From NCBI GenBank assembly GCA_000004985.1, contig GG738882.1: a stretch of DNA of 64,000 nt; one strand, 5' to 3'. This document shows, piece after piece, positions 37,154 through 44,365 of the stretch. Under the pieces are notes generated by a model. That model did not search any database. It saw only the letters and a program-made list of their open reading frames with translations, and had not been told where the DNA came from. The translations under genes were made by a program, and so were the position numbers. Positions within the stretch are counted from its first letter, which is position 1; each line of letters starts with the position of its first letter. The stretch is from Naegleria gruberi. Its lineage: Eukaryota.

Positions 37154-37924
37154 TTATTTGTAATAATAAATAACCAAAAAAGCAAACATTATGATAATTG
37201 TGATGGCTTTAAATAAATCAATAACTTCTTTTCTTTCCTTGCTAAGTAAAATAGATTCCATATTTGCAAACCCATGCTCCACAGTTTTTTCAACTAACGT
37301 AACCTGACTCTTCAAATTTGATATCCTCTTTTTGAGTTTTTCAATTTTGCGACAAGTTTCATGACTGTTGCTGATTGATGTTATGGTGTCCGAAGAACTT
37401 ATAGTGGAAGCAGACGATCTGTCATTTCTTGGAGAAAGTGGATATGTTGGAGGGTATATTTTGGTCGGACCATACTGTTCATCACTTGAAACAACGTTGA
37501 AGTCTTTAATACTGTCGTTCAACTTTTCAGCAAGATTGAATAGTTGAGAAATAATATTAGTTGCTTTGTCTCTGTTACATTGAAAAACAACATCTATTAA
37601 ATTATCACCACATCTGCGAATACCACCATCAAGTTTAAAATCTTGCAAGAGAGTGTTGTAGTTTGTCTTTGATCCGTTAATGTCTTTATTTTTACTAATT
37701 CGGGAATAAATTGTAATATTTTCCGATTTTCCAAAGTTTTTTGTCTTGTTTTCTACTAAATGAATAGCCGTTAATTTGGAAATTTTAGGCCTTCTATTTA
37801 CATCACTATTGAATATTACAGCGTTGTTAAAATGTTTGCAAGTCATCATCAAGTTGTATTTGATTGACGGAGAGAAGGCAATAATTTCAGAAAGCAAATG
37901 GTAAGGAAAAAGTTGTTGTTTCAT
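37154..37924 (-). CDS. Hypothetical F-box-like, tail-anchored protein.
   Basis: 256 aa. N-terminal F-box-like segment (LFPYHLLSEIIAFSPSIKYNLMMTCKHFNNAV). Coiled-coil region. A single C-terminal hydrophobic helix ends the protein (ITIIIMFAFLVIYYYK). Confidence 0.4.
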   Translation of the reverse strand: MKQQLFPYHLLSEIIAFSPSIKYNLMMTCKHFNNAVIFNSDVNRRPKISKLTAIHLVENKTKNFGKSENITIYSRISKNKDINGSKTNYNTLLQDFKLDGGIRRCGDNLIDVVFQCNRDKATNIISQLFNLAEKLNDSIKDFNVVSSDEQYGPTKIYPPTYPLSPRNDRSSASTISSSDTITSISNSHETCRKIEKLKKRISNLKSQVTLVEKTVEHGFANMESILLSKERKEVIDLFKAITIIIMFAFLVIYYYK

Positions 37925-38292
37925 TTTTTATTTTTAGTCTAGTTTTTAGAAACAGGTTTGGATTTTTTAGACTTGGAATCAATCTGCATATCTTTGATTT
38001 GAATATCAGCGACTGTAATAAACTTGTAGCCATTACATGAGGTATCAATTTATAATTTTTGTTGCATTTCAATTGCTTCAGTAACAGTTCTTAAAGGATA
38101 GACTAAAAATGTTGAAATGTCATTAGCAATACAACGACACTGGTAAAAATTCTTGAGAAAACGTCTCCGGCCAGCGTCCGTGATTCAACAATTAAAAAAA
38201 AATGATCAAACAACAACATGATACTATCTCATCCTTTGATCACTCTATAGAGATCCAACAACAAAAAAACAACACAACTTTTACTTTTAAAT

Positions 38293-39066
38293 ATGACTAA
38301 ATCAGCAAATAAATTAATAGATTTCGTTACTTATACCAATGATTGCTTTACGTCAAAAAGCAAGCCAAAGGTAGAGAAGATCTTTGACTCAATCGAGAAG
38401 AAGGTTGCCAAGAAAAGAAAGGTAAGTTTTTTATTTATTATTATTATATATGTATTATAATTGAATTGAATTAAATAATACAATTAGAGCACTACCACCA
38501 AGAAAACAAGCAAGAACACACTCATCAACATTCCAAAGAAAGCAACCAAGCCTACACCTTGTCAATTTGGTGGTGTTGATTGGAGATCTGTTATTGCCAC
38601 TTATGATCAAGATATATTGGAACTCTACTATCAAAACAGAAGACTAAAAGAATTTACAATGGAGGCTGCAAACATTTTGCACACAAGATTGCAACCAAAT
38701 TTCAGCAAGTTCGGAACGTGGAATTTTCTAGGATCTTGTACAAAGGAATTATTGAACAAACTGTTCTCTCATCAAGATTGTTTGACTTGGGACGCTCCTT
38801 TTACATCAAAAGAAAACGGACAAGTTATCAAGAAGACTCAAACCTTCTTCTATTTTTGTGGATCTATGCCAGATTTATTAACAGGAGAGTTTGAATGGGA
38901 ATTTAAGCAACATCCAATTACGGAAGATTTCAATTTTAAACAGATCGAATCTTTTTATAATGAGCTAGTAATTATCATCAAACCAGATAATCGAGTCTTC
39001 TGTCATTACTCTCAAGTAACACAAAGCTTTTGTCCAATTCTCAAGAAATATCTTCGTGTTTGTTAA
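38293..39066 (+). CDS. Hypothetical protein. Two exons, 38293..38421 and 38488..39066.
   Basis: ATG (MTKSANKLIDF...) followed by a GTAAGT donor at 38422. The AT-rich 66-nt intron ends caattag at 38487 and is in frame with track ORF 38617..39066. No recognisable domain. Confidence 0.4.
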
Positions 39067-39126
39067 GTTTCAATAAATATGCCAATTTCAAAAATTACGT
39101 CAAGTTTCAATTTTAAATAAATCCAA

Positions 39127-41427
39127 TTAATTTATTTCAAAACCTCCTATTCTTTGAGGTGGCATTCTTTCTGGTGCTATCATTGCTTCAGGCATTGGAA
39201 CATTTCCTTCTTCATCTCTGTGTAAATTGGTTAAAGAGACCAACCAATTTTCATCATTCATTTCACCAAGTTCCATAATTAGTAATTTGGAGTGAAGGAA
39301 TGAGTGATCACTTTGTTCAACTTCTTTCAGTTCAGTGTGTTTTCCTAGCCATGGGAAACCATTTACACTTGCTAAATAAATACGTCTGTGCTCTTGTTGT
39401 AACAGTTGGAGAGTTTCTAACTTATTTGCTTTTCCACCTGAAGCTGTGCTTCTTTCTAGAGCTAACCGATGGCCAGCATGGATGTTTTCACTTCCTTCAT
39501 TAGCAAATTTCACTAATGGACCATAAATGAAAATCAAATCTGGAACATGCTTAATCAAAATGTGGAAGTAATATGCAAATTTTGATGTTGGATAAATCTC
39601 TCTCAATAAACGGCCAACGTACTTGCACATTAATTGTAAAGTGTCCTTCTTGTCCACATCACCAATTAGCGAATCAGGACCTTCAATAAAATCAAAAAAA
39701 ATAACTCGAACCAACTCCCACAACATCACTCCTTTGTAATCCAAATAGCCATCAAATATTTTCTCAAAGTTGCGGAGGATTTCATCAACTTGATCACCAT
39801 TTAAATATGGAATTTTTGGATAATGTTGATCACTCACACCTTCATCTTCATCCTCTTGTCTCTCGTTTCTGTATTTGAATTGAGATAGATGTGGTAATCT
39901 TTTCATTCTTGATTCAATTACATCCCATACATCTTTTCCGTGTTGGAGTAAAATCTGTACCACCAAACAAGAAACAATTCTCATCTTCATATGCAAGGAA
40001 CAAATAATATTATGGACTAGGACATTAGGCATCATTCTGAAAAATAATGTTCTTGGATCATTATCATGTTCATAAAGATGACGTTGTGATTTCTTACATT
40101 TACAATAAGGACAAAAACATTCTTCATCATTCAAGTCAGATATTAATCCAAACATCTTCAAATCATGTACCATGAATATTTTGATTGGAATGGAAGTATC
40201 ATTATACATTATTTCAAAGAAACCAGTTAAAGAATTGTAACTTTCCTCTAATATTGAAGTAATGAACCTTAAAATGGCATTAGATGCTTCCATATTTTCA
40301 TCATAATCTAGAATGGCACAAATAATTTGAGAGAATCTGGATTGTGCTGCCACTTGTAAATTTAAAGGAGCAACAGATCCCACCAAATAAGTCTCAGTTC
40401 CCTTATCTAATGAAAGTTTCAAGTCTACACTAGAAAGGCTATTGCTAATATTATTCTTGCTACAAATTGATTTGTGAATATTTAACATGTCACCCAATAC
40501 TTTCACAAAATTACAACAAACGGCTACACCATTAACAAACACGTTATATCTAGCTTGGGTGCATTCATGAATGGCACTTCTCAATCTACACAATGTTCTA
40601 GAACAAGGAAGAATACATTTCAAACCTGTATATTCAATGAATGTTTGATATTTCTCATCACTTAGTAGAATGAAATCTTTCACATATTGAATTAGTTTCT
40701 TGCTTATATCTAATTTACTTTTGACTGTAGAAACAGCATTCTTGATTTGTAACCATAATGATTCGTTTTCTTTACCTGTGGATGGATTAATTCTCATACA
40801 CCTTAACATCTTCACAAATTCTGGGATATTTCTTTGAAAGTAGAGAGCTAACATTAACAGTAAGTTTAATCCACAAGCTGTACAAATACCATACAAAATA
40901 TTCATAACATTATTTACAATTTTGTTTCTATAGGTAGCATCTGTCATTTCTGTAATTTTCTTTCTATACTTTGTGGAACATGTGATACTTTCATTACCAC
41001 AAGCAGAACAGCAACCTCCTACGAATTTCAAATTAATTCCTGACTGCTCAACATTATTTCTTATTACAATGGGTGTTAAATCTTGGACTAAATATTTGGA
41101 AATTAATTCCAAAACAGATTCTTTACATTTACAGGATGGACTCAATAGAAATGATAAGGCCCAAACCGGTTCAACAAATTTATTTTTTTCAATCATCATT
41201 CCTTTCCAATTGGATTTATTAGGTTTAAAATATTTTGGCTTTCTTGGAGTTGTACTATATTTCTTTAATAATTTTGTAATATTAATGTATTTTTCTTCAT
41301 TTTGGGTTGTTATTTCAATATCAGTTCGATCAAAAATAGTATGGATATTTGGAATTACCTCACTTAGTGACAGAAATTCGGATTGTTGATCATTACTTGA
41401 TGATTGAGTATGATCAAGGGATGACAT
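39127..41427 (-). CDS. Large cysteine-rich protein of unknown function. It may be transposase-derived or a member of a multicopy family.
   Basis: 766-aa ORF with Cys clusters (SPSCKCKES, VGGCCSACGNESITCS, YGICTACGL, LKCILPCSRTLCRLRSAIHEC, ECFCPYCKCKKSQRH). A degraded paralogous copy lies immediately upstream (see the pseudogene feature). ATG behind an A-rich run. Confidence 0.5.
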   Translation of the reverse strand: MSSLDHTQSSSNDQQSEFLSLSEVIPNIHTIFDRTDIEITTQNEEKYINITKLLKKYSTTPRKPKYFKPNKSNWKGMMIEKNKFVEPVWALSFLLSPSCKCKESVLELISKYLVQDLTPIVIRNNVEQSGINLKFVGGCCSACGNESITCSTKYRKKITEMTDATYRNKIVNNVMNILYGICTACGLNLLLMLALYFQRNIPEFVKMLRCMRINPSTGKENESLWLQIKNAVSTVKSKLDISKKLIQYVKDFILLSDEKYQTFIEYTGLKCILPCSRTLCRLRSAIHECTQARYNVFVNGVAVCCNFVKVLGDMLNIHKSICSKNNISNSLSSVDLKLSLDKGTETYLVGSVAPLNLQVAAQSRFSQIICAILDYDENMEASNAILRFITSILEESYNSLTGFFEIMYNDTSIPIKIFMVHDLKMFGLISDLNDEECFCPYCKCKKSQRHLYEHDNDPRTLFFRMMPNVLVHNIICSLHMKMRIVSCLVVQILLQHGKDVWDVIESRMKRLPHLSQFKYRNERQEDEDEGVSDQHYPKIPYLNGDQVDEILRNFEKIFDGYLDYKGVMLWELVRVIFFDFIEGPDSLIGDVDKKDTLQLMCKYVGRLLREIYPTSKFAYYFHILIKHVPDLIFIYGPLVKFANEGSENIHAGHRLALERSTASGGKANKLETLQLLQQEHRRIYLASVNGFPWLGKHTELKEVEQSDHSFLHSKLLIMELGEMNDENWLVSLTNLHRDEEGNVPMPEAMIAPERMPPQRIGGFEIN

Positions 41428-41429
41428 TT

Positions 41430-42700
41430 TATTTTAAACTTGTTTACAATAAAATTCCAGAAATATTTGGAGTTGTAGTATGTTCTCAATCTATAATTAA
41501 TTTTTTGAAGGTGGCATCTGGGGAGTTGTTGAAGCTTTATTAGGTTCATGGATATAAAAAGCTTCGCTTCTATAAAGAATGGGGCAACCAGGAGTGCACC
41601 ATCAGTAGGGTATTGTCATTGTATTGACATTTACAATAATCTCCTTTTTGGCATTTACATTTAGAACATGTATAGCTTTCAAGAAATAATGATAGCCATC
41701 TTTGTACAGAATCCCAAATCCAAGGACCTATTAGAATTCCAATCTTTTCAATTGAATCAGTGTAAGAGTTATAAACATCAATTGATTTTCCATTAATTTC
41801 ATTCAACTCTTCAACTAGTTTTGTAGCTAATTTGAATTGGGAAATAAGAAGCACAACAATTGTAAATAAATTAATCAGTTTTACTTCAAATTAATTTTCA
41901 GCAGAGTAAATTAAGGGCAACTTTCAGTCAAATACCAACACACTAAAAGCCGCATAGAAACTGAATGTTCACCGAATAGTCACTGAATGTTTACCATATA
42001 ATAACTGAATGGTTACTGAATATTTATTGAATAGTTACCCACAACAAAGCCTTGATAAAAATCAAGTCGCCAAGATGATGTAAAGACACCATGACAATAA
42101 ATCCAATCATCAAATCTTTTTCAATAAATTTCTTAATAACAATATTTCTAATTTGTAAAGGTAGCATTATTTGGATTTGAGAACTTACTTTCCACTAACT
42201 GTGATTGCAAATTGAGATTCTTGGAATATTGATATTGAAACTAAGAATTTTACCTAAACAATCTTTCTTCACCACCATGACATCATTAGCCGTAGTGTTA
42301 ACATGAAATTCCTATGTTTGAGTATTAATTATGAATGATTTGTTTCAATGATACTTACATAATTCTTATCAATAAGTTGGAGTAATGATGAATTTTCTTC
42401 TTTAGAGATACGAATAGACACTTCCCTTGAAATATTAATTGATTCTGCGAGGTAGTTTCAACTTGATATGTGCCATGAATAAATTTCTTGAATATCTTAT
42501 TATAGGATTCATATGGAAAACATAGGAGACCATGTCTCTCAATTTCGGTTAAATGAATAAGATGATGAACATTTAAGGACAAATATTCTGGAGGGTTCAA
42601 TTCATCGTACTCCAATACTGATATATATTTGCTTTTTCCAAATCCTCTTTGGAAATACAATCAGAAAATAATATTCTCAATGCTTCAGAAAGGTACTAAA
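41430..42700 (-). pseudogene. Decayed tandem paralog of the 39127..41427 Cys-rich gene.
   Basis: Fragment ORF 41570..41854 (…YNSYTDSIEKIGILIGP…TCSKCKCQKGDYCKCQYNDNTLLMVHSWLP) aligns with …MYNDTSIPIKIFMVHDL…ECFCPYCKCKKSQRHLYEHDNDPRTLFFRMMP of the intact gene. Fragment ORF 42355..42660 (KYISVLEYDELNPPEYLSLNVHHLIHLTEIERHGLLCFPYESYNKIFKKFIHG) aligns with KYVGRLLREIYPTSKFAYYFHILIKHVPDLIFIYGPLVKFANEGSENIHAG. Both lie on the same strand and in the same order, interrupted by frame breaks. Confidence 0.45.
41925..42055. repeat. Short degenerate tandem repeat (actgaatRgtYacc-like units).
   Basis: cactgaatgttcaccgaatagtcactgaatgtttaccatataataactgaatggttactgaatatttattgaatagttaccc shows 4-5 imperfect direct copies within the decayed paralog region. 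Confidence 0.3.
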
Positions 42701-43105
42701 ACCTCATGGCATTTCCACAACTAATAATCATCCAATGATGAAATTACAGCTCCATAAATTAACAATAGTGAACTATGTGACTTATTGTTAACCTTGGGAT
42801 TCTATGGAGATTACAATGAATGTAATACAGAGCTAAAGAAACACTTAGAAAGCAATCTCGAGTTCAATGAAGAGGAGAAACAAGATTTATCAGAAGCACT
42901 TTGCTATTTATTCAAAGATTGTTGTCCGACTTATGAAGGTTTGGAGCTAATCATTCAAGTAATGAAAAAGTTCAATATTACCTATGAATTGAGTAAGAAA
43001 TATCCAACAAAATCTGTTAATCCATATTCAGAAAGTGGAAGTAGAGGAAGACACAATAAATTCTTCAAATAAAAGGCAATCACTTAAGGTTATAGAGCTA
43101 ATATC

Positions 43106-44365
43106 TTAGAAATAAATATCATAATTGTGTTTTGGAATTTTTGAGAATAAGCTAATAGGATGTTGAATCAGAAGGGCATTAGTATTCTTATCTTGATAAA
43201 CTACTGATACAACATTTCCAAATCCAAACATTTCCCTTCTTGTTCTTGCTAATAAAACTCTTCCAAATTGAGGATCCCTTTCAAATGTTGTAAGGAAACC
43301 ATTTTGAGACATTAAGCTGTCATGCCCCGTTTGAAACCTGTGGGATATCTTAATTCCAATTCTTAGTTTGTTTCCAGAGCCCTGTATTCTTTCAATTTTC
43401 CCAAATAGTTTGGATTTGCAAAAAATCCAACATGTTTGATTAATATATATATCCTTATTGATGTTATCTGAGTTGAAATGAGTATAATCAATCCAAAACG
43501 AATCTACCTTAATCATTTTAATCTTTTCCGAATAGTAATTTCCACTTAAAAAGTGTTTATACTTATGAGAATAAGAGCGTGGAATCAATTCTTTCATAAA
43601 AGGAGCAAAGAATATATTACCAGGAAGAAATACTTTAGGTTTTTCATAACTAAAAGTTGCCAAGTAATCGGCACCCTCTACTTTAAACTTTCGTTCTCCA
43701 TTATTCGTATTAAAATAAATTTCCTCTCCTTGATGAACTATTCCACTTAATACTTTAAAATGACAAGTGGCATACAATCTACAAGAATAAACAGTTTGTA
43801 ACATTTGTATTCTGACAGGTTGAGCAGCCAATCGATCAAAATCTATTTTAATAGGCAACGAGTGAATCCAATCCTTAACTTTGTCAATTGAATTCCAATT
43901 TAAAAATTCACAAGTCAATTCAACCACTGATTCTTTTCTAATTACTTTTCTAATCCAATCATAAACTTGATCATTACTTTTAACATTCCGATTATTATCC
44001 ACCAACAATAAAATCCTATCAATTAAAGAATAATTCACCATTCGAATACAATCTCTCAATCGTTGATACATAATTTCATCATCAGTACTTTCAACAATGA
44101 TAATTGCATAATCCGAAACCATCAATGCCTTGTTCATATTTGTGATGGTGCACTGTCTAGCGCCTATCCCCACCAATTGAATAATTAATTTCCTATCAAC
44201 ATCATCATCATTCATTGAATTCGGATCATTCATTACATTGTAATTGATGGTTCTTCTCCATGTAAAATTATATAGTTTGAAATATCGGTAAAATCGCTCG
44301 GAATGATCCGAGTGATCTCCTATCAGTGCAATCGTGATATTTTCTCTAAAGTAATGTTGAGACAT
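43106..44365 (-). CDS. eEF1A/HBS1/Ski7-family translational-GTPase-like protein with degenerate G motifs (predicted pseudo-GTPase).
   Basis: 419 aa. The G-domain aligns to eEF1A: NITIALIGDHSDHSE against NIVVIGHVDSGKST, CTITNMNKALMVSDYAIIIVESTDDE against [28 protein letters not shown], and LLLVDNNRNV against LIVGVNKMDS. Domain III aligns as well (GRVLLARTRREMFGFGNVVSV against [20 protein letters not shown]). The P-loop Lys, the DxxG motif and the NKxD motif are all lost. Confidence 0.55.
   Translation of the reverse strand: MSQHYFRENITIALIGDHSDHSERFYRYFKLYNFTWRRTINYNVMNDPNSMNDDDVDRKLIIQLVGIGARQCTITNMNKALMVSDYAIIIVESTDDEIMYQRLRDCIRMVNYSLIDRILLLVDNNRNVKSNDQVYDWIRKVIRKESVVELTCEFLNWNSIDKVKDWIHSLPIKIDFDRLAAQPVRIQMLQTVYSCRLYATCHFKVLSGIVHQGEEIYFNTNNGERKFKVEGADYLATFSYEKPKVFLPGNIFFAPFMKELIPRSYSHKYKHFLSGNYYSEKIKMIKVDSFWIDYTHFNSDNINKDIYINQTCWIFCKSKLFGKIERIQGSGNKLRIGIKISHRFQTGHDSLMSQNGFLTTFERDPQFGRVLLARTRREMFGFGNVVSVVYQDKNTNALLIQHPISLFSKIPKHNYDIYF

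Follow-up and report, generated by a model that had tools for sequence, protein, structure and literature searches.

A probable DNA transposon with a RAG1-fold transposase and two convergent genes in Naegleria gruberi

Background

What is the 766-amino-acid (aa), cysteine-rich protein encoded at positions 39127..41427 of a stretch of Naegleria gruberi DNA (contig GG738882.1, assembly GCA_000004985.1; the whole stretch of 64,000 nucleotides is called the window below), and is the DNA lying upstream of its gene a decayed copy of it? An earlier, sequence-only reading of the window had raised both points. The window is eukaryotic and intron-poor, and encodes the ubiquitin-activating enzyme E1 and the largest subunit of RNA polymerase II. 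In this work we find that the segment 38127..41626 is very probably one copy of a 3,500-bp cut-and-paste DNA transposon, bounded by terminal inverted repeats (TIRs) and carrying two convergent genes, one for a DDE transposase with a predicted RAG1 fold, the other a second open reading frame (ORF2).

The vertebrate antibody-gene recombinase derives from this kind of transposase, hence the intense study of RAG1, Transib and their relatives. They are placed in the CMCT clade, which comprises EnSpm/CACTA, Mirage, Chapaev, Transib, Plavaka, ESTA, Lanisha and RAG1 (Kojima 2025, PMC12730594). The published CMCT lineages share a C(2)C and H(3-4)H signature and 5'-CA..TG-3' termini, and all of them duplicate 2-5 bp of their target (PMC12730594), the duplication being 5 bp for RAG, RAGL and Transib. 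The element described here, found in a deep-branching protist, duplicates none. It could reveal how the integration stagger is determined in the RAG1 fold, whether a two-component organisation arose repeatedly, and how broadly the RAG1 fold is spread among eukaryotes.

Boundaries, mobility and target site

Five copies of the element were compared: the window copy, one from a Naegleria-like Logan assembly (L001) and three from N. lovaniensis (L002, L003 on PYSW02000025.1, and L004). More distant family members were located in Willaertia (L005), on a metagenomic contig (L006) and at a further N. lovaniensis locus (L007). The three N. lovaniensis transposase proteins are more than 90% identical and are encoded on three contigs. 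L002 and L003 contain a common, sharply bounded unit of 3,690 and 3,733 bp, respectively; the differences between the two amount to 11 substitutions, a 1-bp frameshift and a 42-bp indel. L004 is an internal-deletion derivative which lacks positions 849-2318, has the same ends as L002 and L003, and is 99.9-100% identical over the remainder. At aligned positions the three copies, one intact, one frameshifted and one internally deleted, are 99.7-100% identical. The element has recently been active in this sister species.

The ends of the N. lovaniensis unit form a perfect 12-bp inverted repeat, CAATACAACCAC...GTGGTTGTATTG, and the terminus CAATACAACGAC also borders the homologous gene pair of L001 (5684..9218). 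Every one of the five copies has the ends CAATACAAC...GTTGTATTG and lies in flanking DNA unrelated to that of the others. Since matching termini lie on both sides of the gene pair within unrelated flanks, the window holds a 3,500-bp TIR-bounded element. Its inverted repeats, of 12-13 bp, read 5'-CAATACAAC(G/T)AC...GTCGTTGTATTG-3' and give 5'-CA...TG-3' ends. The 3' TIR, on the ORF2 side (CAATACAACGAC, 38127..38138, plus strand), is identical to the L001 terminus and has one mismatch to that of N. lovaniensis; the 5' TIR, on the transposase side (CAATACAATGAC, 41615..41626, minus strand), differs from its partner at 38127 by a single mismatch. By calculation, about 0.008 chance occurrences of an exact 12-mer of the terminal repeat are expected in the window. 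The sequence-only reading had proposed to look for inverted repeats around 39100..42750; they exist, but at 38127 and 41626.

The L003 insertion provides direct evidence on the target site. Two further, uninterrupted occurrences of its target sequence lie in this locus (...CTCAACGACAAA|GGTTTGTTG...), and the insertion point is precisely at the bar, without gain or loss of any target nucleotide, which corresponds to a target-site duplication of 0 bp. Flanking direct repeats were looked for at the five insertions and found at none of them (0/5). The element has inserted here (L003 1-22331) among tandemly arrayed paralogous genes, whose products of about 495-526 aa have no known domain; the array units are 88-98% identical and are the source of the two empty sites. 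Termini were also sought in the AT-rich Willaertia locus L005 and in the short contig L006, and none was convincing there.

An ungapped comparison of the ends from three species, together with an analysis of shared 6-mers, delimited a 3' subterminal box at 38156..38165 (plus strand). The sequence AGAAAACG, at element positions 30-37 of the 3' end, is conserved in the three species, and an AATGA[G/C] box occupies positions 34-39 of this end, where the window copy has a degenerate AACGTC. This 6-mer is the sole one common to both ends beyond the 13-bp terminus, with its start at 5' position 21 and 3' position 34 in L001 and L003, which leaves spacers of 7 and 20 bp. At the other end of the window copy, the 5' untranslated and subterminal region (41428..41614, minus strand), between the 5' TIR and the transposase ATG, contains a degenerate 5' box at 41601..41606; the distance from the inverted repeat to the ATG is 199 nt in the window and 193 nt in L001. 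In these two lineages the placement of the boxes hints at bipartite ends with asymmetric spacing, of the kind seen in RAGL and some Transibs; the window copy has the boxes in degenerate form. The N. lovaniensis copies have in addition a 5' subterminal hairpin made of G/C runs (CCCCCCCTGCGGAAACAGGGGGGG; L002/L003/L004 9680-9706), absent from the other two lineages.

The transposase gene and its product

The gene at 39127..41427 (minus strand) is an uninterrupted 766-aa ORF with the cysteine clusters that had been noted earlier, among them ECFCPYCKCKKSQRH (aa 436-450). Its product matches the public N. gruberi predicted protein P0001 with 100% identity over 74% of the length. P0001, of 591 aa, starts at ORF residue 161 and ends with an unrelated 24-aa spliced tail. 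Homologues align to the continuous ORF over roughly residues 1 to 730. This favours the 766-aa reading, and the public gene model is corrected from the annotated 591 aa to a supported protein of 766 aa.

No family was matched in a Pfam scan of the 766-aa protein, the RAG1 model and Transposase_21 included. A deep HMMER profile search yielded 140 relatives, and the family profile, compared with the sequences of the PDB, matched zebrafish RAG1 (E 3.2e-8), amphioxus RAG1L (1.6e-6), mouse RAG1 (about 1e-5) and HzTransib (2e-4). When the family profile was aligned with RAG1, the second D, the C(2)C, the H(4)H and the E motifs paired, DLK with DEK, FCPFC with ICTLC, and YiHIlvkHlp...GsL...nqGfE with YLHKTLAHVP...GSIGAWASEGNE. 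An AlphaFold model built from a 59-sequence alignment had a mean confidence (predicted local distance difference test, pLDDT) of 79.2 and a predicted template modelling score (pTM) of 0.69, with pLDDT above 90 over most of aa 240-700; a 2-sequence alignment gave a pLDDT of 31, and all fold results given here use the 59-sequence model. Searched against the PDB with Foldseek, it retrieved RAG1, RAGL or Transib structures as its first 46 matches (E as low as 4e-12), followed by Hermes at 6e-3.

A catalytic motif, which the earlier reading could not identify by eye, does emerge at the level of the family. Three acidic residues are conserved nearly without exception, D341 in 38/39, D422 in 46/46 and E647 in 51/52 of the sequences, as are C439 (46/46), C442 (46/47), H479 (55/55), H622 (52/53) and H627 (52/52), so that the triad and the pairs C439-x2-C442, C476-x2-H479 and H622-x4-H627 are near-invariant. 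According to the model the 766-aa protein is a DDE transposase of RAG1/Transib architecture, with an RNase-H-like catalytic domain for which we propose D341, D422 and E647 as active-site residues; together with the conserved zinc-site cysteines and histidines they make up an intact core of RAG1 type. None of the superfamilies that had been put forward as candidates (MULE, hAT, KDZ, piggyBac, P) accommodates it; it belongs to the CMCT clade.

At the N-terminus a KilA-N DNA-binding domain was considered (aa 36-73) and set aside except as a lead, as its score of 16.9 bits is below the cutoff of 23.8 and the match is confined to the N. gruberi copy, without counterpart in the orthologues. This weak KilA-N-like stretch lies within a confidently modelled beta/alpha N-terminal domain. 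That domain could be the end-binding domain of the protein.

Named relatives of the transposase are a divergent N. gruberi paralogue (P0021), an N. fowleri fragment, proteins of N. lovaniensis and Willaertia magna, a Pharyngomonas kirbyi transcript and a protein of the amoebozoan Planoprotostelium fungivorum. Pfam RAG1 matches among the relatives cover the H(4)H-E region only, at 18-30 bits, and were not taken as evidence of true RAG1 membership. The family also includes many metagenomic proteins, some of which carry a fused Zn2Cys6 domain or Ulp1 protease: P0010, a 1,232-aa metagenomic member, is fused to Zn_clus, and P0028 carries a C-terminal Ulp1 (Peptidase_C48) protease domain. Ulp1 is a common accessory domain in CACTA and Mutator-type elements. 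At L007 (9066-13386), two genes that encode fungal-type Zn2Cys6 (Zn_clus) domains come after a distant transposase paralogue of N. lovaniensis, and the association of Zn_clus with the transposase looks recurrent.

The second gene

ORF2 faces the transposase gene and consists of two exons on the plus strand. Exon 1 (38293..38421) encodes the basic N-terminal region of the accessory protein, and exon 2 (38488..39066, stop codon included) a conserved C-terminal domain of about 150 aa, detected by the ORF2 profile with an E value of 9e-111. They are separated by a 66-nt intron (38422..38487, GTAAGT...TTAG) with a canonical GTAAGT donor, the removal of which gives an intact protein of 235 aa. This splice product is identical to the annotated N. 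gruberi protein P0144 (100% identity, 100% of the length).

In this sub-lineage the two genes are linked. In each full copy ORF2 is convergent with the transposase gene and downstream of it, and homologues occupy the equivalent convergent position in L001, L002, L003, L004 and L006; four lineages share this arrangement. The L006 transposase is 31% identical, yet an ORF2 homologue is similarly placed there (E 8e-31). No ORF2 accompanies the more remote transposases of L005 (Willaertia) and L007 (N. lovaniensis). Comparison of ORF2 with Pfam and PDB gave no match, including kelch, PHD and RAG2, and a word-indexed search found homologues in three Naegleria genomes only. If RAG2 and the TnpA of En/Spm are a guide, ORF2 would most likely be an accessory factor for DNA-end recognition or regulation.

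The DNA upstream of the transposase gene

The sequence-only reading had interpreted 41430..42700 as a frame-broken tandem copy of the gene, with two ORF fragments corresponding in order to two regions of the intact protein, and had seen in this a local duplication followed by decay. Both fragments exist on the minus strand (fragment A, 41570..41854, 94 aa; the other, 42355..42660, 101 aa), but no similarity to the gene was detected in them. With the 766-aa protein as query against the whole window, tblastn found nothing in 41428..43105 at E<=10. Smith-Waterman scores of the two fragments against the protein were 40 and 39, with shuffled sequences at 33.9+/-5.1 and 34.0+/-4.7, and 44/300 and 47/300 of the shuffled fragments reached the observed score. 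Permissive blastn and tblastx between the gene and the upstream segment returned noise (best E 0.012, with lax scoring, and 0.45). The 59-sequence family profile, run with hmmsearch --max on all six-frame pieces of the window, matched the gene alone (E 3e-141), the piece 42660..42358 having an E value of 76, and blastx of 41627..43105 against 148 family proteins gave a best E of 0.29.

What had favoured a duplicate was a short likeness of motifs, CSKCKCQK to CPYCKCKK and HHLIHL...G...E to HILIKH...G...E. The order of these motifs is nevertheless inverted: on the coding strand the HHLIHL fragment (42660->42355) precedes the CSKCKC fragment (41854->41570), whereas in the protein CPYCKC (aa 439-444) lies ahead of HILIKH (aa 622-627). 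Fragment A, moreover, spans the 5' repeat of the element, and its last 18 codons belong to the element; codons 77-94 (QYNDNTLLMVHSWLPHSL, beginning QYND) are the terminal inverted repeat read in frame (CAA TAC AAT GAC, 41626..41615) followed by subterminal DNA. The boundary at 41626 thus parts the gene from the upstream DNA, 41428..41626 being the element's own leader. In favour of former coding sequence, the flank 41627..43105 contains two stop-free stretches of at least 90 aa, with 0.11 expected, and 1/500 shuffles reach two; some former coding sequence may therefore lie in it. At the sensitivity of these searches, a tandem duplicate is nonetheless highly improbable. The "decayed duplicate" is an artefact of a transposon end read in frame, together with unrelated flanking DNA. 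The suggestion of a transposase-derived or multicopy family was correct in that the protein is a predicted DDE transposase and the element is multicopy in N. lovaniensis, but local tandem duplication as the mechanism found no support.

The stretch 41627..43105 is host flanking DNA outside the element and unrelated to the transposase family. When the element was excised in silico and the flanks were joined, no ORF was restored, which gives no evidence of a disrupted host exon.

Comparison with known transposons

With the CMCT clade the Naegleria element has in common a DDE triad on a predicted RNase-H-like fold, the C(2)C/H(4)H signature and 5'-CA...TG-3' ends; it differs in its 0-bp duplication, against 2-5 bp. 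RAG1 and RAGL provide the best sequence-profile match (E 3e-8), and the order of motifs is alike, namely D, D, C(2)C, C/D(2)H, H(4)H and E. The two histidines of the Naegleria transposase precede the glutamate by 25 and 20 residues, a spacing that we take to be equal to that of H937/H942 to E962 in RAG1. Sequence identity is nevertheless only 11-15%, and the Pfam RAG1 model does not match the 766-aa protein. The layout is that of ProtoRAG, an end, a transposase gene, a convergent second gene and the other end (PMC9435367, PMC10462144), with ORF2 placed as RAG2L is (PMC9435367). The partner gene of RAGL elements is, however, a RAG2-like kelch gene, with or without PHD, and the 235-aa ORF2 is not RAG2-like since it has no kelch or PHD signal. 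The Naegleria ends begin with CAATACA and not with a CAC heptamer, and a 0-bp duplication stands against one of 5 bp.

Like the Naegleria element, the Transib of Helicoverpa zea has TIR boundaries, moves by cut and paste and encodes a DDE transposase akin to the RAG1 core. Fold similarity between the two enzymes is strong, but their sequence link becomes visible only through the family profile (E 2e-4). Transib ends were reportedly described by Kapitonov and Jurka in 2005 as CAC-type and heptamer-like. Transib elements encode a single protein and generate 5-bp duplications (PMC10462144), whereas the Naegleria element has a second gene, a 0-bp duplication and a CAATACA terminus. In the predicted structure, the 766-aa protein is nearer to RAG1/RAG1L than HzTransib is.

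The two-gene layout recalls En/Spm, which codes for two proteins, TnpA and TnpD. As compared with EnSpm/CACTA, though, the Naegleria element lacks a CACTA terminus, a 3-bp duplication and a Transposase_21 match (one distant family member matches weakly, E 0.008), and ORF2 has no similarity to known accessory proteins, including TnpA. A few family members show weak or local matches to DUF1280 (3 members), Transposase_21 and Transposase_23, the DUF1280 matches being the sole hint of a place among Mirage, Chapaev, Plavaka, ESTA or Lanisha. Insertion without target-site duplication is known from Spy, a eukaryotic cut-and-paste DDE transposon of the PIF/Harbinger-ISL2EU-Spy group (PMC4122938). Spy is a functional parallel alone, as its transposase superfamily is unrelated, its fold context is different, and nothing in the Naegleria element matches PIF/Harbinger.

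In a full-text literature search no Transib, Chapaev, Mirage, EnSpm or CACTA element was found described in Naegleria, Kolobok being the sole DNA-transposon superfamily that we met listed for this genus (PMC9587614). The element is a DDE transposon of the CMCT clade, which departs from the published lineages, compared by their descriptions, in its 0-bp duplication and its accessory gene.

Weight of the evidence and alternative readings

Several points weigh against our reading of the window as holding a mobile two-gene element that inserts without duplication. The empty-site proof of a 0-bp duplication comes from one insertion (two paralogues), the other four sites contributing an absence of repeats. 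The protein collection has on record one copy each of the N. gruberi transposase and of ORF2. In the window copy a single position distinguishes the two inverted repeats, and its AATGA[G/C] boxes are degenerate, unlike those of the other two lineages, where they are conserved. No ORF2 relative of known function was detected by Pfam, PDB or word-indexed search. D341 is a putative first catalytic residue, assigned from its conservation and its predicted strand position, and the nick-hairpin chemistry and the role of ORF2 are putative, by analogy with family relatives.

Degenerate boxes and a one-base difference between the repeats raise the possibility that the N. gruberi copy has lost its mobility or been domesticated; both genes would then be maintained by selection for a host role as the ends erode, in the manner of the fossilised echinoderm RAGL loci. 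The single copy of each protein would fit such a history, as would the retained catalytic residues and the intactness of both ORFs over 3 kb in an AT-rich genome, ORF2 even with a spliceosomal intron. A recent insertion, however, equally predicts intact ORFs; the inverted repeats still match at 11/12 positions, one of them being identical to the L001 element terminus; and mobility of the two-gene unit has been demonstrated in N. lovaniensis. Flanks differ between all species examined, which leaves no conserved host locus. We regard domestication as unlikely, and the N. gruberi copy itself may still be mobile. Slightly less unlikely, in our view, is that the element belongs to an already named and catalogued lineage (Transib, RAGL, Chapaev, Mirage or EnSpm/CACTA), the missing duplication being a quirk of a few sites. 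Its fold, motifs and 5'-CA..TG-3' ends are typical of the clade, and the matches of three family members to DUF1280 and, weakly, of one to Transposase_21 point in the same direction. This has to be set against a 0-bp duplication where all published CMCT lineages have 2-5 bp (PMC12730594), ends that are neither CAC nor CACTA, the lack of any Pfam family in the 766-aa protein and most of its relatives, an ORF2 that is neither a kelch RAG2-like protein nor any known TnpA, and the outcome of the literature search.

A further possibility, which we place somewhat above either of these but short of even odds, is that the transposon represents an undescribed heterolobosean lineage of RAG1-fold (CMCT) elements with protist relatives, which inserts without duplication, has bipartite asymmetric ends, depends on a novel partner and is active in N. 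lovaniensis. If so, a RAG1/RAG2-like two-component layout would have arisen with a non-kelch partner, and the element would be a tractable experimental outgroup for how RAG-type enzymes set the target stagger and recruit a partner. With intact, frameshifted and deleted copies at 99.7-100% identity, N. lovaniensis is therefore a plausible live system for tests.

By analogy with solved relatives, the transposase would pair both element ends and nick at the CA termini. The element would then be released by hairpin formation on the flanking DNA, as in RAG, RAGL and Transib, and its 3'-OH ends would be joined to the target. The two joining events appear to be unstaggered (0-bp stagger), because the insertions carry no target-site duplication.

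Neighbouring sequences

The 1.5-kb flank 41627-43105 has no long ORF and no similarity to the sequences compared, and may be what remains of some unrelated gene or element. Within it, at 41950-42015, lie three tandem 22-bp units resembling CCGCATAGAAACTGAATGTTCA, which are 73-82% identical. On the other side, between the E1 gene and the element, an orphan ORF of 256 aa (37154-37924, minus strand) has a C-terminal hydrophobic tail and no Pfam family. Beyond the upstream flank, a 419-aa ORF (43106-44365, minus strand) likewise matches no Pfam family; its N-terminus (ITIALIGDHSDHSERF) looks like a degenerate P-loop of a translation-type GTPase.

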